DNA from: Owenia fusiformis
Lineage: Eukaryota
Reading direction: 5' to 3'
Assembly (NCBI GenBank): GCA_903813345.2
Contig: CAIIXF020000001.1
Span: 2,418,001-2,482,000, forward strand
DNA length: 64,000 nt
Shown in pieces: positions 1-25,135 of the stretch. A program made the position numbers and the translations under genes. Below the pieces are notes generated by a model. It saw nothing but the letters and a program-made list of their open reading frames with translations, had not been told where the DNA came from and made no database searches. The number at the start of each line of letters is the position of its first letter. The first letter of the stretch is position 1.

Positions 1-366
1 GCTCCGACCGAGCTCCGGCCGATGTGGGACAGAGCATCGGCCAGTCACTGTTCAAAGCCCGTTAACAACCCGGCCGGCGATCGCACGGTGTCCTGTTACC
101 TGCTCGGGTACCGGCCGTATTCCTTCCGATGTCCGGCCGACCTCCGGCCGGTAGTTGCTGCCACATCGGCAGAAAAAAACTACCATTTTGAGACAGACTC
201 CGTACGGTCACCAGCCGGTGTTCGGTCGGTCGCCTGAAGATGTCCGGACGGAGTCCGTTCACGTCACCGAGCTCTGCTTCCGATGAGGAGAGCTCGGTGG
301 CACCAAAAAAATCCACCGAGCTCTACCGATGCCGGACATCGGCCGGGCTATGTGACTAGGCCATTA
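1..366. mobile_element. Partial GC-rich non-autonomous DNA transposon (PIF/Harbinger-like end) in an NPC1 intron
   Basis: GC-rich island ending tgtgactaggcca-tta, similar to the terminus of the MITE at 3665-3810 (tgtgacccaggca-tta). The left end lies outside the window. Confidence 0.5.
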
Positions 367-382
367 ATCTTCACTTTTCCAG

Positions 383-3300: not shown

Positions 3301-4646
3301 CTTGAACTGACTGCGCTCTTGAACTGACTGCGCTCTTGAACTGACTGCGCTCTTGAACTGACTGCACTCTTGAACTGACTGCGCTCTTGAACTGACTACA
3401 CTCTTGAACTGACTGCGCTCTCGAATTGACTACGCTCTTGAACTGACTACACTCTTGAACTGACTGCGCTCTTGAACTGACTACATTCTTGAACTGACTG
3501 CGCTCTTGAACTGACTACACTCTTGAACTGACTAAGCTCCTGCTAAATGGATGCATGAACAATCGATGACCATGCTCTGACTGTGCATTATTTAGTTTTT
3601 CATCAATGTTCATTCTATTATGGAAATATGTTTGTTAAATGTTAGCCTTTAATATGCTGTTTGCTAATGCCTTGGTCACATTTGCTTCGATTTTCACTAC
3701 GGCGCCCAGCTGATTGAGTATTTTGTTCAAAATTGAATACAATATTGAGCAAAACACTCAATCAGCCAGGTGCCGGCCGATGGATCGGAGCAAATGTGAC
3801 CCAGGCATTAATGGGAGCCTTTATTATGTTGCAGGTCCTCCTATAAATAAAGCCAGATTGTATCAAGCCCAAAATAAATATTCCAGGCTAGAGTATGTCA
3901 TATATCGAGTTAACATCTGAATATCTGCATTTTTGTTTTCTGCTTAGTTCTGCATACCTTATATAACATGTATAATGTTGTGTTTGGATTTATGCACCAA
4001 ATGATGCTTTTAGGCACCAAATGCTGTTTTTCTCTTACTTGAACATTTGCCTTGATCTGTGACAAGTGGACTGTTTTGTAATTATCATTCAATTTTAATA
4101 TTAACTTTTACATTAATATTTATTCTTTGGTCACTTGGTAACTACTAATTGATACTAATTCAATGAGCCTGATAAAGGCAATGATGGGTATTACTAATTC
4201 TTTAATTAATAATGATGGGCATACATACATGTATTATTCTTTCCCTAATGTAGTGCAACTTTCTCCAGCATAAACCTGCAAGCTTTTCGACATCACATTC
4301 TCTGACTTGAACCTTCCATGTTAACATATTTATCTTCTGATCTGAATAAACGGTATGAATTATAGTTTAATACTAGTGTGTAGAAATCAAATGACTTTAA
4401 AAGAGATATGCGATTTTAAACAAAAACATAGGCTACAATAACATTAATATACGCTCTTCATATCAGAGCATATTTAATAATGCATTTTCTTTTCCACTTG
4501 CAGGGCCTCCGATTAACAAAGCAAGGCTATTTGAGGCTTATCAGAAAAATTCCAACAAACATAGAGTGTCGTCAACAGAAGAAAGAGAAGCCTTACTCAA
4601 GAGTGCTATCAACAGTGATAGTGCAAAAAGATATGAGGCTATATGA
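383..4646 (+). CDS. NPC1: NPC1 (Niemann-Pick C1 lysosomal cholesterol transporter), 3' part. Exons 383-670, 1381-1612, 1934-2047, 2303-2465, terminal exon B 4504-4646 (alternative terminal exon A 3835-3920)
   Basis: Spliced translation GHAAYGTAV...[12 protein letters not shown]...[17 protein letters not shown]...[29 protein letters not shown]...[67 protein letters not shown] matches the NPC1 C-terminus. All introns are GT-AG with consistent phases. The tail has the dileucine motif EREALL. A likely polyA signal AATAAA at 7567-7572 is followed by a GT-rich tract. Confidence 0.96.
3103..3537. repeat. 17-bp minisatellite (TGACTGCGCTCTTGAAC) x about 25
   Basis: Perfect tandem copies that degenerate toward the 3' end. 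It explains the spurious 17-aa-periodic ORF at 3071-3367. Confidence 0.97.
3665..3810. mobile_element. Palindromic MITE, PIF/Harbinger-like (TAA/TTA ends)
   Basis: taatgccttggtcacatttgc ... gcaaatgtgacccaggcatta; the interior is also self-complementary (ctgattgagt...actcaatcag). Confidence 0.75.
3835..3920 (+). CDS. NPC1: NPC1 alternative terminal exon A ([28 protein letters not shown])
   Basis: Acceptor ttgcag at 3829-3834, in the phase that matches the donor after 2465. It encodes the same GPPINKARL start as exon B, using different synonymous codons. AATAAA at 4345-4350 lies between exons A and B. Confidence 0.75.
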
Positions 4647-5648: not shown

Positions 5649-7635
5649 GATTCTAATATGATAAACTGTGAAGAAACAAAACTATTTGCATTAATGAATT
5701 TTAGTGGTCATACATACTCCAATACTGACCAGTAAATCAATTGTTCTAGCTATTGTGACGTCACGTGTCATATTAGAATCATATAGAATGCCAAAGATTT
5801 TGTTATTCTTCAAACATTAAATTGTCTGATTATGTTATTGACTCTCTATAAAAGATGATTAATATATTATTAATATATAATATACAATTTACGATGTGGT
5901 CAATGGGAAAGAGGTAAATTGCTTCATAATGGAATTATGCAAACTCCTAGCTCAGATATTAAAGAAATTAAGGCAATTGGACTAGAAGTATTGAGAGTTT
6001 TGCATTCAATGCAATGCGATGATCATAACCTCAGAAGGAAAGCTGGAACGTGCCATGTGAGTCTCAGCCAACATGTTTACAATCATAAACTGATAGCTAT
6101 TAGGAGCATGGGCTTTCAAGAGTCTGTTGAAAGCCCATGTTAGGAGCCACCATTTGTTCTCAGATGATGATTATATAAACGATGTTGAACCACATGGCCA
6201 TTTTCTACATTCCTCAAAGACCATATTGATAAGTCTGAGATCCAAATGGTAGCTGTATAATTATGTACTTGTATATATAGGCCTGCTGTACCATTGATCA
6301 TTCTAATTAAAAGTTGTATTTATTGTGTTTTAAATGGCTGACTAGTAATATGTATATTCCATTGACTGTGTTGGAAATTTTATTGTTTTGGCACAATACA
6401 CAACAATCTCAGTAGCAGTTTGTTCAGTCATTGTACCTCCTTCATTCTCTCTTCAAGATGTTTAATTTATTTATAATTTTGACCATATTCATTTATGTCG
6501 TTCCTGACACTAAATGTCATTAAATCAAAGTTAAATCAAATGTTCAGATATGTGTCACAAATTGAGAGTAAGCGATTTCATCTCAAGTTCAAGTGAGTTG
6601 AATCATTTTCCAGTAAGACTGAGTTTCCTTGGGATAAATGTCCATAGAAAGAGGTATCTGAGAGAATGTACTGAACAAACTGCTATCCAGATATGAATGC
6701 ACAACTCAGGATTCCACTGTTGCTATTAGATTGACACTATTTATTTGAACAGTAACACTCTCAAGTTACTACACTTAGGTTTTACAAACCATTTTTCAGG
6801 CCTTGCAAAATACATATTATTAAAGGATGGGAAAATACTCTTTGAAGAAATCTTGATTTAAAATGTATTATTTAACTTTTAGTTTGTTTTTTTTTATAAA
6901 AAATGTAAATATTTAAAACCTTGAAAAAACAGGATTACAAAATGCTAAACATGTGAAATCTCCAGTAAGATACAGAGCTGTTAATTTTGTGTTAAGAGTG
7001 ACTATGATATGTTAAATATCCTTTTCACATGAACATTTATCATTTTTACATGTAAATCAAACTCAAATCAGAAAAGTATATATTCCTCTATGGAAAGCGA
7101 AGGGAGAATTCCAACTTAGTATTTCTCTTGTTCTATGAAATTGTACATGTAATTCAATTACTCATTGTACATGTGTATGTTATGCTCCCTAAGATATCAT
7201 TTATTCAAACTGTTTTAGTGATATTTTAATTTTGCTGTATTGTAAGGGGGTTGATTTTCACTATACCGATAAGGGGATACAAATATCTTGGTTAGCATAA
7301 TAATAAGCCACTTGTGATCCAACCAATCAATTCATAGGTCATTATATCTGAATATGCACCGAGTACCAAAACCAAGACTGTTATTCGCTTCATGTAGTCG
7401 ATGAGTGCTTGTATGCCATCTTAAATTCTATTAGAAGTATAAATTATATTTAGAAGCTGGTTATTGCCTGGGTCAATCACTGTTTATGTAAGCATCGTTT
7501 TCTTTACAAAAATGTAAATATGATTTCAATTTAGTATTTTTGTAACATATGAATTGTTTTAATAAGAATAAATGTGGATTGGAAAATTAATTCTGTGTGT
7601 GTGTTTTTAAGTCTACTAGAGGTCCTATATTTAGA

Positions 7636-8005
7636 GGTTATGTCACTATCGTGGCATATATGCCCGAGGTCTCAGTGATGGCCCGACCTTGGGAGGGACA
7701 TTGATCTCTGAGAACCGAGGGCATATGTGCCACGATAGTGACATAAGCGATTTATAACATACCTAATATGATGATGTAGACTGGTCAGAGAGTACCGTTT
7801 TTTATAGAATTGACAAACAAATGGTTTGAAAATGATTGAAATGAGTAAAGAAAAATTGCTCGCGCAGTTTTATCTTGGATTGATTGGTTATGACGTCAGC
7901 GCCTTGACCAATCAGAAAGTTAGCGGGCGCAGGCTTTTCACAACTTATATTGGCCCGCTGTCTTGTGTTCACTTTACACTATACATCATCATAGGTATGT
8001 TATAA
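7636..8005. mobile_element. Interspersed element made of a hairpin plus an inner inverted repeat (related copy at 43231-43327)
   Basis: ttatgtcactatcgtggcatata...tatgtgccacgatagtgacataa hairpin, followed by ttataacatacct...aggtatgttataa arms. The same tatgtcacta...tagtgacata stem recurs near 43.2 kb. Confidence 0.6.
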
Positions 8006-8009
8006 TTAA

Positions 8010-10878
8010 ACATTTGGTATGTGAATTTGACAAATTGGTATGGGAACATAATGATATCAGCAGAAGGTTCAGCCTAAGACCCCCGCCAAATTTTGTACAC
8101 AGTGAACCCCCTGGGTGCGGATGTTCTAGACATCAGAGACAACAGAGCTCTCGTAGAATTGGAAGGGTTTCCCAACCAGTACTCCTGGGAGGATTTGACT
8201 GCCAACTGGCGCAATTTTTTAAAGAAACAGGTAATTATAAAACATCAAAAAACACAATACTAAACACTAATACAAGAATCAATGTTATGTCAAATCACCC
8301 CCCCCCCATTCCTTAACTTATACTAATACCAGAACAAATGTTCACCCCTGTCCCCCCATCAGCTGACATATGTATTTATATGAAACATGAAAGTTCAACC
8401 CATGAATACTAGTATGAGACACAAGAAACGGTTCATCTGATTCTCCCAATGTAATGTACCTTTCATGCTGATGCTATGAAATATTCACTCCCCCCCCCCC
8501 TTAATAGGTTGTTCTAATAGCATTGGTGTTACACACAGTACGCCAGTGCGTACCAAATGAATTGGAAAAAAATCAAAAATGTGTTAAAAATGCATTAATT
8601 TGTTTGCACATTTATTGATTATTCTGTATTTGTAGATTCAACTATTAAGTTTTATCAGAAAAGAACTATTTAAAGTTGATAAAAACGCTCAAATTGCATC
8701 AAATAATGTCTTTACAAAGACATTTCCCGGGGAGCATACCCCTGGATGCCCCAAGATGTGTGGCCTTTGGCCACGCGATCCACACATCCACAACTGGGCG
8801 TACCAACTCAAAATGTAGCCCTACGCCCATGAATAGGGGAATTTAAGGCAAAGATCATTACTAATATGGTACAATTATAAACAAATTCAAGTATAAGCTG
8901 TATATTATTATGTCACCACCAAAAGTGGTGACATATTGTTATGGTCTCCGTTTTTTTATGTCACCACCAAAAGTGGTGACATATTGTTATGGTCTCCGTT
9001 TTTTTTGCGACGGCGTCTGGCGGTTGGAGGTTGGCGTCCGGCGGTTGGCGTCCGGCGGTTGGCGTCCGGCGTCTGTAACAATTTCTTACAACTTCCTATA
9101 ACTTAACAAATACTGTTTAGACTGACTTCAATTTTTTTCTAAATCATCTACATGTTCTCAGAAGTTCAAATCTGACTTTAGATTTGACATTTGACCTTCA
9201 ATGACCTTCTCAAGGTCAAAAAGGTCTTTTTTCAACTTGCTTCACATTGACAATTTTTTTTTTCAAAATCATCTACATGTTCTCAGAAATTCAAATCTGA
9301 CTTTAGATTTGACTTTAGATTTGACCTTCACATCTGACTTTAGATTTGACATTTGACCTTCAATGACCTTCTCAAGGTCAAAAAAGGTCAAAAAGGTCTA
9401 TTTTCAACTTGCTTCAAATTGACTAAATTTTGTTTTCAAAATCATCTACGTGTTCTCAGAAATTCAAATCTGACTTAAGATTTGACATTTGACCTTCAAT
9501 GACCTTCTCAAGGTCAAAAAAGGTCAAAAAGGTATTTTTTCATCTTGCTTCCAATTGAAAAAAAAATTTTTTCAAAATCATCTACATGTTCTCAGAAATT
9601 CAAATCTGACTTTAGATTTGACATTTGACCTTCAATGACTTTCTCAATGTCAAAAAAGGTCAAAAAGGTATTTTTTCATCTTGCTTCAAATTGACTAAAT
9701 TTTTTTTTCAAAATCATCTACATGTTCTCAGAAATTCAAATATGACTTTAGATTTGACTTTAGATTTGACATTTGACCTTCAATGACCTTCTCAAGGTCA
9801 AAAAAGGTCAAAAAGGTCTTTTTTCAACTTGCTTCAAATTGACTATTTTTTTTTCAAAATCATCTACATGTTCTCAGAAATTCAAATCTGACTTTAGATT
9901 TGACATTTGACCTTTAATGACCTTCTCAAGGTCAAAAAGGTCTGTTTTCAACTTGCTTCAAATTGACCAATTTTTTTTTTCAAAATCATCTACATCTTTT
10001 CAGCAGTTCAAATTTGACTTTACAAGTTCTCAGAAGTTCAAATCTGACTTTAGATTTGACCTTTGACCTTCAATGATCTTCTCAAGGTCAAAAAGGTCTT
10101 TTTTTAACTTGCTTCAGATTGAACAATTTCTTTTTTCAAAATCATCTACAAGATCCCAGAAGTTCAAATCTTCAAAAACCTTCTTAAGGTCAAAAGGTAT
10201 TTTCCAACTTGCTTTAAATTGACCAAATTGTTTTAGGTGGTGACATTTTGTCATGTTAATGCCTTGTTCATCCAATGTAAATGCATTATTTTATTATTTA
10301 CAAGTCGTTGACACATATATACTTTCAATCTTATACATTCAGTCTGTCCATGATAAAGTATTTTAATGCAAATAAACATATAGCAGTTATGTATATATAT
10401 ATATTGCAGGAACATTCCTACAGCTCAACATGGGCAACAAAAGAACTGAGACAGAAGTCCAGCAACACCAGAGCATTGCCTCAAGATATATACAGGGTGG
10501 ACCACCCTGTACATATATAATTGGGATATTCGAGAGGGTTGAATATGACAACACATTGTGCCTCAGGTATTGTTCATATAGTATTCGTATGACTTAAACA
10601 TGTTATATGTATGTAAAACATGAAGGTCAGGATGCAAGAAGTATCAGAATATACTAGCCTAAGGATAACATTAAATAATCAGTCAATTATGAAAATAACC
10701 TTTCATGAATGAGTGAACTATCTCATAATGTACAATATTTAGTTTTTTATTTTCCAGATGCAATCATAATGGTCAAGGAGAGACCATGGCAATGCAATCC
10801 GGTAGGGGAGCTCCTCGTGCCTGGACCCACTCACATTTCCTTGACATTTGCTTTGACAAGAGGAAAGAACTGGAGTAA
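8010..10878 (+). pseudogene. Remnants of a spliced ORF with a chromodomain-like segment. Tentative exons about 8010-8230, 10410-10567, 10759-10878
   Basis: The frame starting at 8102 reads VNPLGADVLDIRDNRALVELEGFPNQYSWEDLTANWRNFLKKQ up to a CAG|gtaatt donor (phase 0). The acceptor ttgcag|10410 continues in phase 0 as EHSYSSTWATKELRQK. A further donor follows 10567 and an acceptor precedes 10759. The ORF is broken by a stop or frameshift and by a collapsed Tc1-type TIR footprint (tacagggtggaccaccctgta, about 10491-10511). Confidence 0.35.
8905..10268 (+). mobile_element. DINE-1/HINE-like (Helentron-associated) element with an internal tandem array of about 120-bp units
   Basis: Subterminal inverted repeats atgtcaccacc ... 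ggtggtgacat, a duplicated 48-bp head, a GGCGTCC-type microsatellite at 9010-9075, about 8 tandem units (aatctgactttagatttgacatttgaccttcaatgaccttctcaaggtcaaaa...), and a 3' end ending cttgtt. Confidence 0.7.
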
Positions 10879-13249
10879 GTTTGACCTTTAGCTACCAATA
10901 ATATTGAGGGAGATGAGTACTAGTGTTTCTATGGTCCTCTTTTCTATAGAATATTCCACTTTCACTTTGTCTTATACTTCCATTTCCTGTTCCTCAGGGT
11001 ACACAAAGTTTAATCTCTCTTGCATTGATCTATTAAATGCATCAAGTCCATCTTCTGTGTAGTTGTTAGCTCTCTTTTGTCTCTCAACTTTGTATAATTT
11101 CCCTGGCAATTGATGATTTTCCCATTGCATAATCTGGAATCAGGTCAAAACAACATTTTAAGAACAAGATTTTTTATACAAGAATACATCTGTATAATGG
11201 TTAAGACATTTGGCAAAAATCTTAGTTTGCATTACATGAAACACTTATGCAGCTTAGAGTTTAATTTGAAGGTTTAAGAGTTTAATTTGTTTAATATGTA
11301 GGTCGTACATACAATTTCAAACTGGTAATTTCTTGCTTTTACCAGGAATATAATAATGATTAAAGTTTTCTGTTCATAATTTTTCATTTCAGGTGAATGT
11401 TAATACTTGAAATCAGTACCTGCGAGGAAACCTTGCTATTCACCCCATCCCTTCTGGTGCTGCTCTGGTAAAGCTTATGATGGACATGGTTCTTCTGTTC
11501 AAGACAGTGTGTTCCAAGGCAGTGAATATTTCCATATCTCTGCAGGAAGTATGGAATGTGGTAAACTAGACCTGTAATATATAGATCCAGAAAGGATATT
11601 GTACAATACATCATAACAAATTGAATATATACAAGAAACAAAAAGTGAACACAGATTGTTTAAAGTGTGCGCCAAAGTTTAAAACTGCGCAGGCGCACCG
11701 CTCTCGCTAAACTATATAAAGAGATTACCACGGTACACGATTCAGAGGTAAGCCAGGAAGGCGAACGATCTTCGTCTCGTGATGATTTCCCATATAATCG
11801 TAACCAGGGAAGTTTCACCATTGAAATTGAAAATTACTATTAGATATACATTGTAGATGTTATTTATGAAGCTATTTAGTGTTTGCATCAATCAAATGGC
11901 TCATTTTAAACATATAAAAAGTATTTGTGTTTTGTTTCCCAGGGAATTGTATTGTACGTAGTACACACATAAATAGTGTACATTATACAGTACTTGAATA
12001 GCCTGGTTTACATAATATTGAAGGGCATGCTGATTACATGCACACGAGTACATGAATGAAGGCCTAATATTGATATACGTAGCTTGCATACCTAAATAAA
12101 AAATAAACTCTTCTAATCCCCTAATGTAAACACGGCGGTATACGTAGCCCGATTTATCGGGGACTTTAAGGATTGCATTGGATATCACACCAAATCAAAT
12201 GGATCACACATCATGTGTGAGTACATGTTAATGAAAATTTATATTCGTTTGAGCGAAGCGAATTAAGAATATAAATACTTTCTATATATGTGCAGTGAAG
12301 TGAAGAAAAGGCATGAATCATGATTTGGTAATGTAGCATGCTGTTCGAGTTGAGCAAAGATTTTTGTGTGTTAGGCCTTGTTTAGTGAGTGAGTTTTATG
12401 AATAGAGAAGTCATTCTGGGCTTGGTCGCCGAACAGTCAACTCCAAAAAATGTTAAGCAAAATTTTTTAAAAAGCTATTTCTGCATTCAAACAGAGTTGA
12501 TCTATGATTGGGTCTGATGGGTTGAGAGGTGGGGTTATACCTTTCCATAGGGCATCGACTTCAGTCGAATAGCATCTTTGGTTTTAATGGTGATCAACCA
12601 CCTTGATATCAATCAGGCAACAATTAAACGTTGCATACAACCTGTTTTACTAATTGTACAATATACCCGGCACAGTTTCTGCCATATGTACACGTATACT
12701 AGGATTTACAATGAGCAGGCCATGCAAACAGTCTTACAAAACGATATCTATTAAAAGTATTGTAAAGATCTTGTCACATGTACACATATACTAGTATTTA
12801 CAAATAAAGGGTAGCGACCACAAGCCAAAGCTAGATCTAAATTAAAGCTGTGTTGTGTTGTGTATCATGCCGTGTACGTAACGTAACGTACAGAATAGAA
12901 AACATATTTTATAAATTGAGGATTGATTGAGTGAATTGCCAACTAGACAATGTCTCAAATAGTCAGAAATCCAAAGGAATAGCCTGGATAGTTTCTTTAC
13001 TTGTATTTACACATGCACTTACATTCCAAAGTGTCTGGATGGTTTCAACGAACAGTCTAAAAGTCCCATTTGCCATATGTTGTTGCTGTCTTCCAAGTAT
13101 CTGAAGACATGAATGTGAATAAATGTAAAATTTACTAAATCAAATATATTTTAATATTTTTCTATTAGATAAGATATATGATAAATCATTAGGATATTTG
13201 TTAGGATATCCTTAAAAAGGGACTGAATAGATGTAAGGGGTTCATGGTA

Positions 13250-13801
13250 AACCAATTCTGTTCGTTCTCCCAACAAGTGGAAGTTGCAGACATTGACATC
13301 GGATGGTCCAATCATGTTGTTTATGGACCATCATGATATGAGCTCATTTTTGAATCATTACATTTTCCAACAAGATGGAGCTCCAAGTAATAGATCCCAC
13401 AAGAGTGTCAAATGTTTAAAGGAATCAGTCCCTTAAGGACAGAATTGTTGAGAAGTGGAATTCATTGTCTCAACATGTCAATGATGCTTTGACCAGTTTG
13501 GCCAAAATTGAGGGCTATAATTGATCAAAATGGTGGCAAATTAAGCGTCTGATTATGTAAATCAAGTTGACAAAAAACTTGGTTTTTGGAAGTTTTCGAA
13601 AACCCGTTTTGAAACGAAAATGACATCATTTATATTATGGATGCTGGTTTACAGGCATCATAATAAATTTGAACTTATGATATACCAAATCAAAGATAAG
13701 TAAATTCCCTATCCACTGGTATATAATATGACATGTTTTCATGAAGAATATCAATATTTATTTTTGAAATATGAGTGTCCCATTTTTGAAACCACCCTGT
13801 A
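13250..13801 (+). mobile_element. Tc1/mariner remnant inside a transposase intron
   Basis: TTCCAACAAGATGGAGCTCCA encodes the FQQDGAP motif at about 13365-13385. The 3' end tttgaaaccaccctg-ta is typical of a Tc1/mariner TIR followed by TA. Confidence 0.65.
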
Positions 13802-14227
13802 AATGAGAGATGATCAATGTTTTTAAAACATAAATCAGGGACATATTACAATTTTTGGCAATTTGAAAACTTCTGATTCTTTACAATCACTTTATTTTGA
13901 GATTTGAGTGAAACATACTCCAACACCAGCATTCTTTAATCTTTCCACCAGAAGAGCTTTATTCCCATTAGTTGGTAGATCCCTCCTGGCACATTCAGTA
14001 ATCAGCTGCTGTTTGGGCAGGACATTGACTGGTTCCAAACACCGGTCTTCGATGTCTCCAAGGACATTTTGCAAGTTGATCGCTGTCCTTACCTTGTGTA
14101 ACTCATCACCTAAGAATGTATAGTTTATTTATAATTATATAGTTTTTCATTGTTACAAGATACATGCCCTTGATATCAATTTTAGTACAGTGCAACTAGT
14201 TTTCTCATCTTAAGGTAGAACTAGATA

Positions 14228-14513
14228 CTGTAGAAGCAGAAATTATAGCGGGAACATACTATAACGAAATATAGGCCTAGCCAAAATCATAAAACGCGAA
14301 AATAAATTATAGCGTTTTAAGGCTGGTTTATTTTTCTATTTTGGGTTCAAATCGCCAGAAGGATCGGAGAATTTATTTTTATTTTTTTCGTCTTCATATT
14401 TTTTCACCTGTGAAGGTCTAGATGTTATTATCATGGAATTAAATGTAACGATCGAAGTTAGACGCTATTTTTTCGCTATAATATCTTCCTCGTTATAATT
14501 ACTGCTTCTACAG
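14228..14513. mobile_element. MITE with TA target duplication
   Basis: ta|ctgtagaagcagaaattatagcg ... cgttataattactgcttctacag|ta. Confidence 0.75.
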
Positions 14514-16629
14514 TATATATGCAAGCAACATCTACAGCTGACATTTTAATGATAAAAATGGTAACCATAAAATAGAAAAATAGTACATTATTGTAAAAAT
14601 CTTTAGTATTCCTGAACACATTTTAGTTAAGAAAACATTAATCAACATGATCAATGTACTTCTTTCTTTTTACATTTTACTACTGTTTCAAAAAGAGGCT
14701 CTAGGAGTTTTCTTATCTAAGAACAGTATTATTTACAATATCTGTACATCGTTACTGATATGGGAGATTGATACGATATAGGTATGATTTAAGATTTATT
14801 TACCATTTAGGGAAGAAGATTTTCGAATGGATTTGCTGCCGACTGTGGCTTCCTTGTCCTGCCAGAAGTGGAATTTGACATCAAATTGAGCATTTCCGCG
14901 CAGAGTTGGTCTTCTAAGTTTTGTACCATGACCCATACAATCACCTTCATTAAATTAATCAATTTAATTAAGTTATTTTACACTTTATATAAACTATATA
15001 TATACATATTATTACATCTTTGATTTTGACTAATGATGCCAAATACTCTCAAGGTTCAAGGTAACCTCAGAGTAAATTTTCAGGAAAATTAGTATTTTAT
15101 GATTTAAACTTATACTAACCAACACTGCCTTGTCAGCCACTCTATGAATAATTTATTGGACTAACTTATTCCTTACCTGGTTCAGAAGCTTTTCTGCGAT
15201 TCTCATATCCATGTGTAAGGTGTCGGGAATTATGGAGGAGAATTCAATCGGAAGGAGGGGTTGCCTCACATGGCGGCCCCTTTCGGGGGATTTTCCACAT
15301 TCAAGTAATGGCAGATACTTTGAAGTGTCCTGCTCACCTGCATGTACCATATTAAATTATGTGAAAATTATCCTAATAGCCCCCATATGTGCCTTCATTG
15401 TCCAATGAGTCTTAAGTTATTTCCTGTGCCAATGATATTTTTTGTAAGTGAAACAGATACGAAATGGTTACTTTTTCACACAAAGTTTACATTTATGACT
15501 ATCCTGTATTTATATTAGCTTCATTATACTCAAATGAAATAAATATTAACACTCACTTCCAAAGTTGCTGATTTCCGCCTTTGTGCAGTGACACCATATA
15601 CAGAAATATTTGGAATTGGCGGGACTGAGGCCCATTATGATGGCACTATCCTTCCAGTCACATTCCATTTTCCTGTTAAGACATGTAACAGTAAAGTCAT
15701 ATAAAAATTAATAATGATCCTTTAATACTGAGTAAGATCTTTATCTGGCAAAATTCGGTTACAATTTCAAATATTAATCGGAAATGAAACAATTGCTTAT
15801 GATAACATACAATACAGACTTACTCAATTAATTATTTTTCTAATAATATGGTTTACTTCTATATTTCATTGTGAATTTTATTTATGAATGACTCTACATC
15901 AATGCTTTGAATAAGTCCTACCAAAAAACTGAAATGTGTCGAGCTCATCAAAATCCAGGCCATCTCCCTTTAACAAAATCATATCTTGAAACGATGTGTT
16001 GCCACACATGGCCTCATTTTCCACATCCTCTTTTCCTGAAATCAAAACTTTTTGCAATTGCCAATTCTACAAACATTTGACATAAAAATCATCCATGAAT
16101 AAACTTTAATTTGAGAGCTCAATGAAGTAACCAGCATGTTTAAAGGGAGTATCAGATCTTGGGAATGCTCTTAACCATGTTAAGAACAATTGTTTCAACT
16201 TAAGAATATTTTTGACTTATACCATTCCTTGCAATTCTTGTTATCTAAAAATCTCCATCAGAGTGCATACTTTGTTTGATGAAAACAGATGTTTGAAGAC
16301 ACAGGTCTGATTCTACCTTTAAATATCATGAGATAAATGTACTTGGAAACTAATATACAAGATTATCCGACACTTAGTGTACTAAATGTATAATAACATT
16401 AAAGAATAAATTTGATATTTATTGGCAAAATGAATAACCAGAGGATATCGTAACGATATACTCCGGGCAGAGGATATCGTGACGATATACTACCCAATAT
16501 GCGGAGGATATTGTGACGATATACTCCGCTTGTTGATTTCATGCCAAATTGACTCTATTTGGCATGAAATTCATTTTGCAATGATATAATAGATTTATTA
16601 CACTTCTTGTAAGTGTAGGATAATAAGAA

Positions 16630-16747
16630 CATCCTATGATTTTTTTCAGAATATCATTTTAATCTACTCGGTGATATTGATATATGAAATATCAATATCA
16701 CCTCGTAGATAAAAATGATATTCCTCAAAATCATAGGATATCCTATA
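16630..16747. repeat. Hairpin element
   Basis: atcctatgatttt...tctactcggtgatattgatat / atatcaatatcacctcgtaga...aaaatcataggat. Confidence 0.75.
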
Positions 16748-17689
16748 AATATACCTTAGGTCCAGTGACTATTGGCTAGTAGGAAAACAGAAAATAGTCT
16801 TGCTGCAATTAATTTCAAAAAGCTACTCATGCTAATCATGCTATTCGATTTTCTTTAAAAGATCTATCAATAATAGATCAATAATGTTTATTGTTTACTT
16901 AATGTTTAATGTTTATTGTTTACTTAATACTGTACCTTTATAGACTTTATAAACTTAATACTGTTCCTTTATAAAAGTAAAATGGGTGTTCTGTAGTTAG
17001 GTAAAGAGGATTCTGGCTCTTGACACTAAAGGCCCCTTGAACAGAATTGATGTTCATTGTCAGCTTTGCACCATCCGTTTCCAATATAAGCTCTACTGTT
17101 CATATCTAGCATCAGTGCTTTCTTGACAATCTGTTTCAGGTACCGCCTAGCACCATCTTGACATGAACTCTGGAAACAAAAATAAATTAATTCTTAACTA
17201 TCTTGAATTGATATATTTTGAATTTTCTGAACCCAGAATTAGAAAAGGATACAATATTTGTAATACACTATAAATTGCCTTTCATTTGAGTATAATGAAG
17301 TTATAGCAAGATCTCAAAATTAACAAAATTTCCTATTTGCCCCATCCCTAGGGGTAGTGCCAAAAACTTGGAGTAATATATGTCATAAAGATTATTTGGA
17401 TAAACTACCCAAATTCCAAAAAGGAATACTTGAATTACTTTGGTTAGAAATGCAATAAAATACCATCATCTTCAAAGCTAAGGCCATCCAAACTTTGTTG
17501 GCATATTAACTCGGCTTCATTATGCTTCAACTTACAGATTATACTTCATATAATTGTGAAAAATAACCAGTTTTGTGAAAAAGTGTAATGCATTGTAAAA
17601 CTTTCGTTCCGGATATGAAAGGGTGTCCCGAAAGTATGCCCCCCCAGGCAGACATATACCAATGTCTCCATAGTATGTGTCATATACAT

Positions 17690-19521
17690 TTTAAAGTTTC
17701 GCAAGGATCCTGCCATGACCGTGGTAGTGTTATCATGAAATCCTGGTATAACCGTGACAATGTACAGTTGGGGACAAAAATAAATGACAGGTCGATTTTC
17801 GATCACCATTTCCTAATTATGGTGGTCTGAAAGCCCATAATTTCCAATATTGTCTAGATATATATCCCTTAAAATTTGTATATTTTACATTTTGTATAAT
17901 CTCATCCACTGATATATGGCCTCTTGTAAATTCTCTTATTTTTAACATGGGAAATCCTCACTTCAGCAAATCCACCTGTCATTTATTTATGTCCCCAACT
18001 GTAATATTATATTGCAAGGCCTGTCATGACCGTGGTAATATTAAAGCCTGATATGGCCGTGACAATGTTTACGTTCTTGAATGAGATTAGAATTATAGTT
18101 TATGGAAATAAATTATGAGTTAAGTAGTAGCAGTACTACAGTAGTCTAGATTTACATATTTAAGGTAGATAAACGATGAAAGGAGAACCTCCGATAAGGA
18201 GAGCTTTTTAGAAGGACATTGCTTTTTTATTCTGGATGTGATAATCATGGAAGTTTAACACTACATCAGAGATGATCTTAGATATTAGGTGATCTTAGAT
18301 ATTCCCAAAACAACTTGTGTGATATAGAAATTGCTTTTTTAAGAACATTTTTTGCAAGGCAATGAACTCGTTTTTTAAGGTTAGACTCTTTATTTGTGGT
18401 TAAAATCCGTGTATGGCCTGATGGGATAGGCACAAAGTGTCACAGTTGTAAGATACCTATTTATCTGAACTCTCAGAAAATAAAAAGAAATCAATGGGCG
18501 TTTCCCTAGAAATATGTTTTTGAGACCTTTTCCACTCATGAGAATGACGGAATAATAGAACCAATTCATAAAAAATTCTTAAAATATATTTCTGGTGGAG
18601 CGCCCATCGATTTCTTTACGAATACTAAGACTTTGCTTCATTATGTTACTTAGCCACATTCTATTTTGCTCGTACAGTAAAGGAAAAGTTATTGATTTTA
18701 AGCAAAATGTAACGGTTAAATATGGGAAATTGAATTATATCGATTCACAAAAACCGTTCTTCAAACGCACGTTTTAATAATTTGAAGAAAATATTTCAGG
18801 ATGTATAAATTCACTTCATTTGTAAAAGTATGTATGTGCTTTTACATTACCACAGTCATGACAGGCCTTGCAACCATTGTCACTGTCATATCAGGCTTTA
18901 ACATTACCATGGTCATGACAGGCCTTGCAACCATTGTCACGGTCATATCAGGCTTTAACATTACCACGGTCACGACAGGCCCTACTATAGCATTGTCACG
19001 GTCATATCAGGCTTTAACTTTACCACAGTCATGACAGGCCTTGCAATATAGTATAGCATTGTCATTTGTCACGGTCATATCAGGCTTTAACATTACCACG
19101 GTCATGACAGGCCTTGCAATATAGTGTAGTATTGTCACGGTCATATCAGGCTTTAACATTACCACGGTCATGACAGGCCTTGCAATATAGTGTAGTATTG
19201 TCACGGTCATATCAGGCTTTAACATTACCACGGTCATGACAGGCCTTGCAATATAGTGTAGTATTGTCACGGTCATATCAGGCTTTAACATTACCATGGT
19301 CATGACAGGCCTTGCAATATAGTGTAGTATTGTCACGGTCATATCAGGCTTTAACATTACCACGGTCATGACAGGACTAGCAATATAATATAGCATCGTC
19401 ACTGTTATACCAGGCTTTCACGATAACACTACCACAGTCATGGCAGGATCCTTGCGAAACTTAAAAACACTTAATAACACGGTGACGGTTGTGCCAGGCG
19501 TAAGTCTTGCAACAGATAGGG
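17690..19521. mobile_element. Foldback non-autonomous DNA transposon, copy 1, with arms built from tandem subrepeats of about 54-66 bp
   Basis: The left arm (cgcaaggatcctgccatgaccgtggta...) is inverted relative to the right arm at 18840-19521, which ends gtcttgcaacagataggg. It explains the repetitive ORFs 18801-19034 and 19007-19402. Confidence 0.8.
17765..18001 (+). mobile_element. 237-bp Tc1/mariner-type MITE, copy 1, nested in the foldback arm
   Basis: ta|cagttggggacaaaaataaatgacagg ... cctgtcatttatttatgtccccaactg|ta. Confidence 0.88.
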
Positions 19522-20172
19522 TGACCTCAGCTTGACCCCCCAACTTAATTCCTGTGACACATGAAGAGATTCATCCCTTTCTTGCAAAGCAAGTGGAAGT
19601 GCATTCATCTGTTGCCCAGATGGCAGAATTTTTCTTCGGAAATACCCCCATCTGTCATTTATGCCTAGTCTAGCTAATCTAGTTCCAGAACTTGAAAATT
19701 CTGCCATCGTGAAGGTAAATTGCAAATAACTGCTCAAATTTTAACTGAATAATGAAGATTGATAGTGCTCACTGTGGGTTACTCGAGTCTCTAGCTAATT
19801 CTCGCGATCGTGGCCTTAGAAGAAGGTAAACTGTGGGTATTTTTCACATTCAACCAAATATTTGCGAATTTGTATACTCCCGCCATAATTAGTCAATCTT
19901 CCGGTACAAGTGTACTTAGATCTAGATTTGCGCCCTCTATAATTTCAGTATGAAATATACTTGCGACCATCTTTCAACATTGATTCCGTGATCTTCTTGG
20001 TTTTAAAATCACAACAAGGTATGTATATAGGTATATTTGATCAAATGCTAATGCTTTACTATTAGTTCGACATAATTTTACACGAATTAATTGCTTTATG
20101 ATCTCATAATACGCCATTTCAGACCAGACTTCTCTATTATCGCCCACAACCAATGACACAATTCACTCCTAG

Positions 20173-20561
20173 AGTCCATTTCACTGCTTCAGTTCGTCAG
20201 TAGAACGGCAAAAATAAGAAATTGGGAGACCATTGTGCAATAATATGTGGAAAAGTATATTCATAATGTACATGAATGACATTTGTATATCTTGGATTGC
20301 TTCTAGTTTGACTTATAAAGTGTGTGGCCTCTTATATTTGGATGTTTCTCTGCCATGTTATTTTCAATAAGATTAACATGGCTGAAATTCTTTAAATTAC
20401 AAGACGACACAGGCTTATTGCACAAAAAACTAAAAAATCTGAAATATACAAATGTCATTCATGTACATTATGAATATACTTTTCCATATATTATTGCACA
20501 ATGGTCTCCCAATTTCTTATTTTTGCCGTTCTACTGACGAACTGAAGCAGTGAAATGGACT
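20173..20561. mobile_element. MITE with near-perfect TIRs of about 118 bp
   Basis: agtccatttcactgcttcagttcgtcagtagaacggcaaaaataag... matches the inverted ...cttatttttgccgttctactgacgaactgaagcagtgaaatggact. Confidence 0.85.
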
Positions 20562-20732
20562 TTAGACTATCATGGGCTTTCAATGCCCATGCTCCTATGC
20601 AGTGTCCCAGAATAGCACCACAGTTGGCACTATCTATCTTCAGATATTCAGATATTAGATTGATATTAGCCAAATCTGACATCGTTTGCCTCACCCCCTC
20701 AAGCCATCTTTATTTGACATACAGTTGGGAGA

Positions 20733-21720
20733 CCCTATCTGTTGCAAGACTAACGCCTGGCGTAACCGTCACTATGTTATTCGGTGTTTTTTAAGTAGCG
20801 CAAGGATCCTGCCATGACCGTGGTAATGTTATCGTGAAAGCCTGGTATAACCGCGACAATGCTGTATTATATTAAAATGCCTGCCATGACCGTGGTAGTG
20901 TAATCGTGTAAGCCTGGCGCGACCGCAACCTTTATATGACATTAATGACCTCCATGTTTCGCCTGTTGCTGTTGGTATTTTTTATGGATAAATCTTATTA
21001 ATTGATCATTATAGAAAGTATATGCTTTCGAATCGAAGCTCCTTGAATGAGAGTAGAGATATAGTTTGTTCGCAAATTATTTATGAGTAAAAATTAGGGT
21101 TTCGTCGTGAAATTAATACACATTTTTAGTAGTCTTTATTTACATTTAAGGTAGATAAACACGAAGAAAAATTGTCATTACGATGTTCTCATGCTACTTT
21201 AAATACAACCACGGTCATGAGAGGCCTTGCAACTATTGTCACGGTCATACGGGCCTTTAACATTACCACGGTCATGACAGGCCTTGCAATATAATATAGC
21301 ATTGTCACGGTCATATCAGGCTTTAACCTTACCACGGGCCTTTCAATCATTATGACAGTCATATAATATTTACGGCAATATAACATAGCATTTCAATCAT
21401 TATGACAGTCATATAATATTTACGGCAATATAACATAGCATTGTCAAGGTCATGGCAGGCTTTACAAGCATTGTCACGGTCATACTGGGCTTTAACATTA
21501 CCATGGTCATGACAGGCCATGCAACCATTGTCACGGTCATACGGGGCTTTTACATTGCCACGGTCATGACAGGCCTTGCAATATAATACAGCGTTGTCAC
21601 GGTTATACCAGGCTTACAAAATAACACTGCCACGGTCATGGCAGGATCCTTGCGCTACTTAAAAAACACAGAATAACATGGTGACGGTTACACCAGGCGT
21701 TAGTCTTGCAATAGATAGCA
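20733..21720. mobile_element. Foldback element, copy 2 (same family as 17690-19521)
   Basis: ccctatctgttgcaagactaacgcctgg ... ccaggcgttagtcttgcaatagatag. It shares the internal segment tttaaggtagataaac with copy 1. Confidence 0.8.
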
Positions 21721-21725
21721 TGTGA

Positions 21726-21962
21726 CAGTTGGGGACATAAATAAATGACAGGTGGATTTGCTGAAGTGAGGATTTCCCATGTTAAAAATAAGAGAATTTA
21801 CAAGAGGCCACAAATCAATGGATGAGATTATACAAAATGTAAAATATACAAATTTTAAGGAATATGTATCTAGACAATATTGGAAATTATGGGCTTTCAG
21901 ACCACCATAATTAGGAAATGGCGATCAAAAATCGACCTGTCATTTATTTTTGTCCCCAACTG
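21726..21962 (-). mobile_element. 237-bp Tc1/mariner-type MITE, copy 2 (opposite orientation)
   Basis: Near-identical reverse complement of 17765-18001. Confidence 0.88.
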
Positions 21963-23167
21963 TATTTACAGTCTGTTAACTGTTAAAAATAATAACAACA
22001 TAACTTCGACATATGAGTGTTACCTGATGAATGGGACCCTCACGTGCCTTCCAAATGGTAGTACACGAACTCTAGTGTAACTACATCAGCTTATCTTTCC
22101 GTCCGATCAACAATAAGTACAGTTATACAAGAAATGTAAACGAAGTGAAAATATTCCCAAAGATTTTCCGCCAACATAGGGACTCATTTTTAGGTAAAAT
22201 CCCTGATTCAACGATGAAAATTAACGAATAAAGTAGTTCCTGTTTACGGGACCATATTCTTGCCAACTTCAATGGTGTGTATAGTAGGTTTAAGTGTATG
22301 CACTATGGCCATTTGAGGTATGTATGTAAAGCTGAGGCCAAGTACTTTCTAAATGTGCCATTTTTAGAAAAAAATCTCAATTCATTTACTACTAGAATAT
22401 AGGACTACACTTATTTTATATGTCAGTTTTCAATTTAGTACATGTTTCATAATTGAATCTAATGTATTCATGCTAAATGTGTCAAATAAAGATGGCTTGA
22501 GGGGGTTCACTTTGGCAAATTTGGCCAAAAATCACACGAAAAGTGGTCAAAATGGTGAAAAAGTGCATGATTTTGAAAGAATTTTTGGCCATGGGGGGTT
22601 CACCTGAACCCCCTGGCTACGGGCCTGACATGTATATCAGTATAAATACTATGTAGATTAAGTTTGATCACTGTGCTAACTTTATTTAAATATGAATTGC
22701 ATGGTCTTCAGATCCATAATAATTCTATACATATGAGATATCTTACGTTCATATTTGAGAGCACATTCAAATTAAAGATCAATGTGTACATGTAAATTCA
22801 GGGATTATTTCCATTCTTCTATTCGAAACGAAATCAAATTTGTAATTATTGAGAATCTTCAAAAATCGATTCCTATTTTTATGTTTTTGTGAAATATTTA
22901 TTTTTCATCGGTCTGAGAAATAAAATTTGAGAGGCCTGTATGTACTTGGTGTACATGTAGCTATTCCACTGCTTCTTTATGCATAATTGTGGCAAAGATC
23001 CTTCATCAAAGATTCTTTCTTTTGTCTCGATCACAACTTTTAACACATTCTCCGAAAAGTTTGACTCAATGTCATGGAAGAATATTTCTGAAGTATTCCT
23101 AGAAAAGATTTTGATTTTTAGTTATATATTGTTCTAATAACTCTGATTAACTTTTCAGGCCATCAGC

Positions 23168-25135
23168 ATGACTGATTGTGTTGATGTCCAAAATAAACCA
23201 ACTGAAACAGTTGAAGACTCGATGGCCATCTGTCCTCCAGATTCTGAGCAGTTAGAACAGAACATTGAAGAAAAGACTACATTGATTGAAGTGAAATGTG
23301 AACAACCTGAGTATGATGAACATACGGAAGAGTCCCTAAATACAGTCACTGTGTACCAGCCGGATGTCTGGCAACAAAAGGTTACGCCACCTCCAAGAGC
23401 AGCCAAGAGGAAAGCAAGAGACAAATGCAAAAAGATAGCTGTAGATGATTCAGGTATAGATGTCTCTGATCGTACTTTCAGTGTGCGTTCAACATGTAGA
23501 AGAAAGCATAAAACATACTATTGTGAACATTGTACATATGCAATTGGAAAACATGATCTCATGCAAAGTCATTATAGAACGGAACACCCAAAATTGGCCA
23601 AAATGCACAAATGTACATATAAGGGATGTGATTATTCATGTAACTGTCGCAAGTCCATCCAAGCTCATATATTAGCTATACATAAGAACGTCAAGTTCAG
23701 GTGTACACACCCTGATTGTACATTTGAGACAAACAGCAGAACTAAACTGAGGTATCATACCAAATCTCAACATTTAGCTGTGGAGGAATTTAAACCTTGG
23801 AAGTGTGATGAATGCGAGTTAAGATTTTGCCATGTTTATGATTTGAATAGACATCATTATGTACGCCACATGCCGGAGAAGCCATACTCCTGCGATGAAA
23901 AAGACTGCAATTACAAATGTAAATCAACTTGGGAATTGAAAAGTCACAAGTCACAAAGTCACAGTGATATTAGACCATATAAGTGTGGACAATGCGGATT
24001 ACGTACCAAGGTTCTTTCAGATCTTCGAAAACACATGATAAGACATTTGAATGTTCGAGAACACCAATGTGGTATTTGTGATAAGAAATTTATTTGTGCA
24101 GCAGATGCTAAACGACATAGGGATGATATACATAGTGATTTACAAATAAAATGTGAATACTGCCCCTATATTGCCAAATCAAGAGCCAAATTTAGAAAAC
24201 ATTTAGAAAAACATGGTTCAAGGTGGTTCAGTTGTGCTCACTGTTCTCAGAAGTATCATTCAAAATCTTCTCTCAAACAGCACATAAGAACACATGATCC
24301 GGATCGTCCCTTTCCTTGTCCCATCTGCGAGGAATACGTAGCAACTTCTGTATTCACATTAGTTGTTCACATTGGAAAACTTCATAAAGATTATCGGTAC
24401 CTGTATGAGTGCATTGTCTGTAGGAGATCTTATAACAAAAGTTGCCAACTGAGGCAACATTTTGAAACTGATTTACACAAGATGACTAAAGCAGCTGATC
24501 CCGCACTAAAGGATGAACCAGATGATCTGTATAAAGGACTCATGGAAAAGCTTTACTCAGTCAATGGAGTAAAGAAAACTACTAAGAAAAAAGAGAAATA
24601 CAAATGGGCAGACAACTTAAAGGGCCCTCGTCCCAAAATCAGTCCTAAGTCAAATGATTTAGTCAATGGTACATCCAAGGCGATACCTAAGAAACCTCCC
24701 AGCCGCAAGAGGAAAACATGTGAGAAGGCTACAAAATCCAGAAAAGGAAATACTCGCAATAAAAAGAGAAAGGGACAAATGTCTAATGAAAAAAAAGATT
24801 CTCATGTAGGAACTGTTAAGGAAGAATGTGAAGATACACCTATACATGATGAAAGCAAAAGAAAGCGGAAATCCAATAACTGTTATGCAACTGCAACTGA
24901 GAGCACTTGTGAAAATACTGATCAAATGGATGTACTCTCAAATGGTCACGAGAGCCATCCGACAGAATCAAGTGAAAAATTATTATCTGATTTTGTGAGC
25001 AACGCAGATGTAGGAACTCTTGAGAATGTGGTTGTTAAGATTGAGAAAGATGATGGTGAACAGGAAATGTATGGTTTCCAAGTTTTACCAAGTGAAACAC
25101 TGGAGCAAAGAGAGATAGACCCTTTAATGACATAG
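23168..25135 (+). CDS. C2H2 zinc-finger protein (655 aa, about 11 fingers, basic low-complexity C-terminus)
   Basis: Intact ORF with repeated CxxC/CxxxxC...HxxxH/HxxxxH fingers and EKPY/IRPY/DRPF-type linkers. An acceptor ttttcag at 23152-23158 lies just before the ATG. A probable non-coding upstream exon ends at 22317 (gag|gtatgt). Confidence 0.93.
   Translation: MTDCVDVQNKPTETVEDSMAICPPDSEQLEQNIEEKTTLIEVKCEQPEYDEHTEESLNTVTVYQPDVWQQKVTPPPRAAKRKARDKCKKIAVDDSGIDVSDRTFSVRSTCRRKHKTYYCEHCTYAIGKHDLMQSHYRTEHPKLAKMHKCTYKGCDYSCNCRKSIQAHILAIHKNVKFRCTHPDCTFETNSRTKLRYHTKSQHLAVEEFKPWKCDECELRFCHVYDLNRHHYVRHMPEKPYSCDEKDCNYKCKSTWELKSHKSQSHSDIRPYKCGQCGLRTKVLSDLRKHMIRHLNVREHQCGICDKKFICAADAKRHRDDIHSDLQIKCEYCPYIAKSRAKFRKHLEKHGSRWFSCAHCSQKYHSKSSLKQHIRTHDPDRPFPCPICEEYVATSVFTLVVHIGKLHKDYRYLYECIVCRRSYNKSCQLRQHFETDLHKMTKAADPALKDEPDDLYKGLMEKLYSVNGVKKTTKKKEKYKWADNLKGPRPKISPKSNDLVNGTSKAIPKKPPSRKRKTCEKATKSRKGNTRNKKRKGQMSNEKKDSHVGTVKEECEDTPIHDESKRKRKSNNCYATATESTCENTDQMDVLSNGHESHPTESSEKLLSDFVSNADVGTLENVVVKIEKDDGEQEMYGFQVLPSETLEQREIDPLMT

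Follow-up and report, generated by a model that had tools for sequence, protein, structure and literature searches.

An optional SAP motif within a putative Transib/RAG1-derived gene of Owenia fusiformis

A 64,000-nucleotide (nt) stretch of the Owenia fusiformis genome (GenBank assembly GCA_903813345.2, contig CAIIXF020000001.1, positions 2,418,001 to 2,482,000 of the forward strand; in the following "the window", numbered from its first letter) carries on its minus strand a multi-exon gene with motifs that recall RAG1 and the Transib transposases. We found that one exon of this gene, 14109..13919, encodes a SAP helix-loop-helix DNA-binding motif which, judged by its profile match, is genuine. 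The reading that we prefer, with a probability of about 0.55, is that the gene is a remnant or domesticated descendant of a Transib/RAG1-type transposase with an optional SAP module. We infer the transposase ancestry, the position of the motif relative to RAG1 and any present function; the ancestry taken on its own appears likely to us.

The SAP exon is 191 nt long and lies between ...ttcttAG on its upstream side and GTATGT on its downstream side; its minus-strand translation is GDELHKVRTAINLQNVLGDIEDRCLEPVNVLPKQQLITECARRDLPTNGNKALLVERLKNAG(VG). Approximately the first 21 codons are non-SAP sequence, and the SAP motif follows. A SAP domain had been proposed here by the initial annotation, and the peptide reads as it was quoted there. 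The Pfam SAP profile (PF02037) matches the 78-amino-acid (aa) stop-to-stop open reading frame (ORF) 14128..13895 with an E value of 2.4e-9 and 37.0 bits (curated cut-off 23.9). The Leu, Gly-x-Lys and Arg-Leu positions that are conserved in SAP motifs are retained. In one Pfam scan of six exon ORFs this was the only match; the other five stayed below the cut-off of every family. Corrected for the 8126 stop-to-stop ORFs in the six frames of the window, the E value is still about 2e-5, so the motif is genuine and no chance match.

Contigs of two runs differ from the window at position 13919, the last base of this exon, by a T to C exchange (plus strand). The change is synonymous for Gly and also alters the base beside the splice donor. 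The contigs at this locus display 5–6 differences per 166–195 nt, and the locus is thus rather polymorphic.

The exons of the gene, lettered from A (upstream) to L (downstream), and the features within exon F are as follows.

16955..17099, minus strand: exon A, putative, with 'ETDG' as candidate for the first catalytic aspartate (D1); weak in-frame donor GTTTAT, stop codon directly upstream.
15930..16035, minus strand: exon B, putative; weak in-frame donor TCA/GTTTTT.
15557..15672, minus strand: exon C, putative, with a CxxC motif (YFCIWC) and, 19 residues before it, an Asp as candidate for the second aspartate (D2); acceptor ttaaCAG, donor GTGAGT, in frame.
15166..15337, minus strand: exon D, putative, containing ...PLLPIEFSSIIPDTLHMDMRI...; acceptor catgCAG, donor GTTAGT, in frame.
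14804..14913, minus strand: exon E, putative shorter form that would use a possible internal acceptor at 14913 and link in frame to exon D.
14804..14936, minus strand: exon E', the public form, with a start codon at 14936 and the end ...SSSLNG; exact in both public proteins (P0001 and P0002, see below).
13919..14109, minus strand: exon F, the SAP exon; phase 1 at its start, codon boundary at its end, AG/GT borders, exact in P0001, Pfam SAP 37 bits.
13928..14020, minus strand: SAP hidden Markov model (HMM) match within exon F, LPKQQLITECARRDLPTNGNKALLVERLKNA; ORF residues 37-67 correspond to profile positions 5-35 of 37.
13957..14042, minus strand: 86-nt internal GT..AG intron (exitron) within exon F; P0002 is reproduced exactly only after its removal.
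13019..13100, minus strand: exon G, ILGRQQQHMANGTFRLFVETIQTLWNV, putative cassette of 82 nt; acceptor gtcttCAG, donor GTGCAT; would carry the SAP frame into exon H.
11420..11571, minus strand: exon H, with an Hx4H motif (IHCLGTH); exact in P0002, and in P0002 only.
10972..11133, minus strand: last exon L, IMQWENHQLPGKLYK...EEQEMEV and then a stop; exact in P0001 and P0002.

Two public proteins document the splicing of this region. A word-based search for longer proteins with the SAP ORF gave 42 candidates, two of which passed, and both are Owenia fusiformis proteins from this same locus. P0001 has 161 aa and is listed as 'unnamed protein product [Owenia fusiformis]' or 'SAP domain-containing protein'. 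It matches 14936..14804 + 14109..13919 + 11133..10975 of the minus strand letter for letter, and Pfam assigns it SAP with 35.7 bits. P0002, an Owenia fusiformis 'Uncharacterized protein' of 183 aa, is an equally exact match to 14936..14804 + 14109..14043 + 13956..13919 + 11571..11420 + 11133..10975 (minus strand) and has no Pfam family. Removal of the exitron 14042..13957 in P0002 deletes helix 1 and the loop of the SAP motif and shifts helix 2 out of frame. Despite the exitron, P0002 reads on into exon H with its Hx4H motif. The initial annotation had named a missing profile hit, or intact members of the family that skip this exon, as arguments against its SAP insertion; the SAP hit is present, and P0002 splices out the SAP core without skipping the exon as a whole. 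The AF2 model of P0001, whose mean predicted local distance difference test score (pLDDT) is only 36.3, shows helices over residues 77-85 and 95-104, where the two SAP helices are expected.

The public proteins confirm the donor of exon E, both borders of F and of H, and the acceptor of L. Both begin at a Met in the exon directly upstream of the SAP exon and after the putative D1 and D2 exons; neither contains exon G with its 'IQTLWN' motif. The isoform pattern can be explained by frame arithmetic. The frame into H is kept both by F plus G (273 nt) and by F without the exitron (105 nt), while G and H (234 nt) can be skipped together, as they are in P0001. A form with both SAP and exon H would need exon G, and no such form was observed. 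The 'IQTLWN' motif lies within ORF 13139..12966, in which a putative exon 13100..13019, bordered by AG/GT, could be joined without loss of frame. The earlier placement of the SAP motif in frame between SSLNG and IQTLWN therefore holds on the upstream side, where P0001 confirms the SSSLNG junction at 14804; on the downstream side, the IQTLWN exon joins in frame and is part of neither public model. The SAP domain as such is already labelled in the public record. Its position inside a RAG1/Transib-like frame was found described nowhere in the literature searched.

If the eight GT-AG exons from B to L are joined, they form one open frame of 362 codons with a terminal stop only; exon A extends it to 411 codons. 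At the composition of the window (66% A+T), the chance of 362 open codons is 1.9e-12. The gene has at least seven introns, and several intronic stretches hold high-copy repeats. We infer exons C, D and G from their frames and borders, with good splice sites (CAG/G acceptors) predicted for C and D; exon D is in none of the public proteins found. Exon L contributes a candidate catalytic Glu in 'QWEN' and has no cysteines, hence no CCGHC tail. An 'ALMLDMN'-type ORF at 17193..17029 was considered as a PreR-like exon and rejected, since it overlaps exon A in another frame and leaves no room for an intron.

Several features of this frame point to RAG1. A CxxC motif (exon C) and an Hx4H motif (exon H) follow each other in one frame as a zinc-ligand pattern, with the SAP exon between them. 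Candidate DDE residues are found in 'ETDG' (exon A), in the Asp ahead of CxxC (exon C) and in the Glu of 'QWEN' (exon L). The spacing agrees with what we take to be that of RAG1: the Asp lies 19 residues ahead of CxxC, presumably as D708 does relative to C727; the stretch from 'LNG' onwards would correspond to position 848-850; and the 18-residue stretch that leads from a His up to the Trp in 'IQTLW' would correspond to the helices after 848-850. The segment between these matched spacings is presumably about 46 residues longer than in RAG1, and the extra part contains the SAP motif.

The initial annotation had already predicted the RAG1 family from motifs, and the ESM Atlas pointed to the same family. 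A feature search with P0002 gave at rank 4 a 'V(D)J recombination-activating protein 1 (Fragment)' (score 0.91; RAG1_ZnH2 67%, RAG1_ZnC2 56%, RAG1_C 42%) and at rank 6 a hit with score 0.90 and RAG1_ZnH2 84% (six hits with that set), where, according to the text of the tool, scores of 0.9 arise in 4–10 of 100 shuffled proteins. RAG1 families appeared again at ranks 15, 19 and 23, and a family or clan was common to 9 of the 10 best family-bearing hits. The SAP motif cannot explain these hits, because the P0002 query lacks the SAP core. According to PMC7204232, RAG1 and RAG1-like (RAG1L) proteins hold one zinc between ZnC2, which supplies two Cys ligands, and ZnH2, which supplies two His ligands.

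Over several exon bins of the gene, RNA depth is low and strongly one-sided. It was taken from two raw runs (X21 and X22, about 6 in 100 of each read) and is given as first mate on the plus strand versus first mate on the minus strand.

16773-17339 (exon A): X21 0.66 versus 0; X22 1.8 versus 0.
15072-15638 (exon D and most of C): X21 1.61 versus 0.08; X22 0.72 versus 0.04.
13938-14504 (exon F): X21 1.4 versus 0; X22 0.96 versus 0.
12804-13370 (exon G): X21 0.8 versus 0.05; X22 0.42 versus 0.03.
10536-11102 (exon L): X21 2.56 versus 0; X22 3.26 versus 0.58.

In usual stranded libraries, this first-mate asymmetry indicates minus-strand RNA. For exon E', the bin additionally contains reads of repeat origin, on both strands.

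Taken together, these data are consistent with the following scenario. The SAP motif would be an insertion of about 45–50 residues in the ZnH2-like, all-helical region of a descendant of the Transib/RAG1 superfamily, and Owenia fusiformis transcripts either keep it (P0001) or splice out its core (P0002). It was probably inserted into the ORF itself and not brought in as a shuffled exon, because about 21 non-SAP, RAG1-like residues share its exon. The present products would be catalytically incompetent remnants, in which SAP may supply sequence-unspecific DNA tethering of the AT-rich or scaffold type, and alternative splicing would toggle between a SAP-bearing form and a form with the Hx4H zinc site. 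In an active ancestral enzyme, the motif would have sat in the ZnH2 region. The legend of Supplementary Figure S5 in bioRxiv 10.1101/2023.08.20.553239 describes a positively charged ZnC2/ZnH2 patch that contacts the DNA flanking the recombination signal sequence (RSS) or terminal inverted repeat (TIR). For the ancestor, an additional hold on target or flanking DNA would therefore make structural sense. That a long frame has stayed open through many introns speaks for selection, past or present, and so for domestication.

A more far-reaching version of this scenario is rather doubtful. Here the gene would be a domesticated Transib-derived gene that works without a RAG2 partner, and the exitron together with exons G and H would switch between SAP and zinc-site forms (with SAP in the ZnH2 region, beside the surface in contact with flanking or target DNA) to yield a regulated chromatin or DNA-binding factor on a recombinase scaffold. 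A domestication in the RAG1 superfamily without a RAG2 partner would be rare, if true.

Several results weigh against the reading that we prefer. Within the gene itself, the bin 15639-16205 (exon B plus 34 nt from the start of C) has almost no RNA (X21 0.05 versus 0.03; X22 0.5 versus 0). None of the 15 read joints listed (296 more exist) falls in the gene, and its splicing rests on the public models. The junctions of exons A and B are doubtful owing to their weak in-frame donors. These weak 5' junctions, the missing N-terminus, the low RNA level, the heterogeneous splicing and the lack of orthologues speak for decay.

No sequence comparison linked any part of the gene to RAG1 or Transib. With single exons or short isoforms as queries, the RAG1 families of Pfam matched none of 10 distinct exon ORFs and proteins at E values up to 10; they were also absent for P0001 (E up to 1) and for the exon B ORF and the A0 stretch (E 0.01). 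Five PDB searches with phmmer (exons A, C and D, P0001 and P0002; E up to 10) returned weak, unrelated matches and no RAG1, RAG1L or Transib chain. When exon D was compared with 1.84 billion representatives by HMMER, there were five matches; the four that were inspected all proved to be tandem-repeat proteins, and the fifth had 8 matched stretches. The homologue search among longer proteins passed 0 of 10 candidates for the exon D ORF and 0 of 238 for P0002, and among metagenome contigs 104 pattern matches to P0001 yielded no confirmed case. In sum, none of the collections searched yielded a relative of the gene. The feature hits of the ESM Atlas are leads and not tests, and exon D alone gave no usable hit there. 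The equivalences with RAG1 residues (D600, D708, E962, C727, C730, H937, H942 and position 848) are putative. The AF2 models of P0001 and P0002, with mean pLDDT values of 36.3 and 33.9, are unusable. As to the transposase context claimed in the initial annotation, the Atlas leads to RAG1_ZnH2, RAG1_ZnC2 and RAG1_C and the CxxC/Hx4H pair speak for it, while its catalytic region was confirmed by no HMM, PDB or library search.

These negative results are what one would expect if the gene had no transposase ancestry at all and were a lineage-specific orphan that encodes a small SAP protein and resembles RAG1 by chance. All alignment-based tests for RAG1 or Transib were negative, Atlas scores around 0.9 also occur with shuffled proteins at the rate given above, and the public annotation says only 'SAP domain-containing protein'. 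However, the Atlas repeatedly names one family that had been predicted in advance, and it does so with a query devoid of the SAP core. CxxC and Hx4H also stand in the right order, and the in-frame exons C and D are open upstream of the annotated start. We therefore regard an orphan gene as quite improbable. It is somewhat less improbable, and still unlikely, that the locus is a dead fossil, a decaying Transib relic whose isoforms and low RNA level represent transcriptional and splicing noise and whose SAP motif has no present function. An RNA depth that does not exceed about 3 in exon bins free of repeats would fit such a relic, as would the exitron, the skipping of G and H, the weak 5' junctions, the missing 5' end and the lack of homologues in other organisms. 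Yet there are no stops in 362–411 codons over 8–9 exons at 66% A+T, a result whose chance for 362 codons was given above, and exons C and D, which are unannotated, have kept open frames and good splice sites. An old neutral relic is disfavoured, because its open frame and splice sites would have been lost.

The initial annotation suggested a transposase family that had gained SAP between D2 and E as an aid to target or end recognition in AT-rich DNA. An intact Transib-type transposase of this kind would account for the uninterrupted conceptual frame of 411 codons with candidate D, D, E, CxxC and Hx4H in RAG1-like order, and for a SAP motif that lies about 21 residues after 'LNG', presumably near position 848 of RAG1. 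The contact of the ZnC2/ZnH2 patch with RSS- or TIR-flanking DNA, as stated in the legend cited above (10.1101/2023.08.20.553239), would suit it as well. The locus, however, does not look like a mobile element. Contig depth in two DNA-like runs is about 4–20 over the exon bins versus 10^3–10^5 over the intronic bins 11670-12236, 16206-16772 and 17340-18473; these runs (X4 and X5) behave as low-coverage DNA, with unspliced pieces across an exon border. From this contrast, the exons look single-copy and the introns appear to hold high-copy repeats, which suggests one copy of the gene at 95% identity or above. The region 8500-23200 contains 78 inverted pairs; the 25 longest all lie within 16642-21964, and none of these 25 brackets the gene. 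We found no coding-looking minus-strand ORF in 21965-23146 and no N-terminal exons of the NBD/DDBD type. The place directly upstream of exon A, where these exons would be expected, is taken by a repeat block:

17689..21964, no strand: foldback/minisatellite repeat block with arms 17763-18012 and 21715-21964 (250 nt, 96% complementary) and very high contig depth.

Further arguments against an active transposase are its eight introns, several of them with high-copy repeats, the weak junctions of A and B, the start of the public products downstream of both candidate aspartates, and the lack of family members in any collection searched. A Kelch/RAG2 family was found in none of the 16 window ORFs scanned with Pfam, and the plus-strand ORFs downstream resemble, by eye, a multi-pass transporter. 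An intact transposase is accordingly very improbable. The proposed role of SAP in target or end recognition presumes such an enzyme, and it finds no footing in a locus that looks single-copy and intron-rich and in which no N-terminal exons, no RAG2-like neighbour and, among the 25 longest pairs, no flanking inverted repeats were detected. All in all, the locus does not look like a working transposon. The gene appears to be host-like and present once, with a 5' part that is missing or decayed, in keeping with the remnant or domesticated gene that we favour.

Several other elements were noticed in the window. The arms of the foldback block enclose tandem arrays with units of 57, 66 and 50 bp (18838-19418 and 21341-21581), as part of a high-copy element. 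The divergent neighbour of the RAG1-like gene, at 23147-25135 on the plus strand, is an uninterrupted ORF of 662 aa with many C2H2 zinc fingers (zf-H2C2_2 E 2.3e-13, zf-C2H2 E 1e-8). At 9327-10171, a 136-bp tandem repeat is present in 5–6 copies with 82–87% matches. Its RNA depth is very high (285–382) and strongly one-sided, the first mates lying on the minus strand, and many reads join repeat units to about position 10234. The repeat resembles a transcribed satellite or a piece of an abundant RNA of repeat origin. A 17-bp tandem repeat at 3102-3533 (25 copies, 94% matches) creates long artificial ORFs in three frames. The hydrophobic ORF series at 360-2485 (plus strand) resembles by eye the C-terminal part of an NPC1/Patched-type protein, and Pfam gave no family at E 0.01 for four of these ORFs; plus-strand RNA continues at 6000-7700, beyond these transporter-like ORFs. 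Further away, we identified an intronless ORF of 369 aa of the zinc alcohol/polyol dehydrogenase type at 54753-55862 on the minus strand (ADH_N E 1.7e-30, ADH_zinc_N E 4.4e-13) and a reverse-transcriptase ORF of 581 aa at 57699-59444 on the plus strand (RVT_1 E 2.9e-26), probably a copy of a non-long-terminal-repeat (non-LTR) retrotransposon.

The RAG1/Transib superfamily provides the textbook example of how a transposase becomes domesticated. To our knowledge, few of its members outside the RAG and RAG-like (RAGL) lineages have been discussed as host genes. No member with a SAP motif appears in the literature searched. In the titles and abstract openings retrieved, a SAP domain is not paired with Transib; SAP domain, transposase and DNA transposon together lead to an unrelated topic only; and RAG1 with SAP domain leads to non-homologous end joining (NHEJ) or Ku and otherwise to other topics. 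The statement in the initial annotation that RAG1 and canonical Transib have no SAP domain at this place agrees with these records, which pair no SAP domain with Transib and include none on a SAP domain in RAG1. The same kind of search gave nothing on RAG1 in Owenia fusiformis, and Owenia with Transib led only to Kolobok elements.

Compared with Transib elements such as HzTransib and with the RAG1 core, the Owenia gene displays a C-terminal similarity to the RAG1 ZnH2, ZnC2 and C families at the level of a lead, and it has CxxC, Hx4H and the candidate acidic residues in what we take to be the same order. Like Transib, it is without a RAG2-like partner gene here; Transib elements encode no RAG2-like protein, as stated in bioRxiv 10.1101/2023.08.20.553239. 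In contrast to both Transib and the RAG1 core, it has a SAP motif in the ZnH2-like region and many introns, is apparently single-copy, and shows no TIRs among the 25 longest inverted pairs; NBD/DDBD exons were not found, and a relationship is not picked up by Pfam and PDB sequence searches.

The RAG1L genes of invertebrates, including domesticated ones of the sea urchin, resemble the Owenia gene in being multi-exon, TIR-less, apparently single-copy and open in frame. PMC8355894 describes SpRAG1L of the sea urchin as a multi-exon gene that has no TIRs and may be alternatively spliced, and a Cx2Cx3GHx4C tail is present in essentially all invertebrate RAG1L according to PMC7204232. The Owenia gene differs by the absence of this CCGHC tail, its last exon being free of cysteines and its stop common to both public proteins. 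It also differs in that the window contains no convergent RAG2L gene and that N-terminal zinc-finger or NBD exons were not found. By the missing CCGHC tail and the missing Kelch/RAG2 neighbour in the window, the predicted protein would be Transib-like rather than RAGL.

SAP-domain proteins include those of the SAF-A, PIAS and Ku70 types. The Owenia motif, of 35 residues, departs from them by its location inside a transposase-like helical region and not at a protein terminus, and by an Asp in place of the usual Gly of 'RGL'; the PDB searches with phmmer, with P0001 among the queries, retrieved no solved SAP chain. A parallel in architecture is offered by transposases and transposase-derived genes with extra DNA-binding modules, which likewise combine a DDE-type core or its remnant with a small DNA-binding domain. 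In the Owenia gene, however, the module lies inside the core instead of being appended to it, and the host gene seems non-mobile. If neither the ancestry nor the long isoform is real, the locus is an orphan gene for a SAP protein, already labelled as such in the databases. If both are real, a frame of recombinase origin has stayed open across many introns in an annelid, and the helical ZnH2 region of this superfamily tolerates a whole DNA-binding module.

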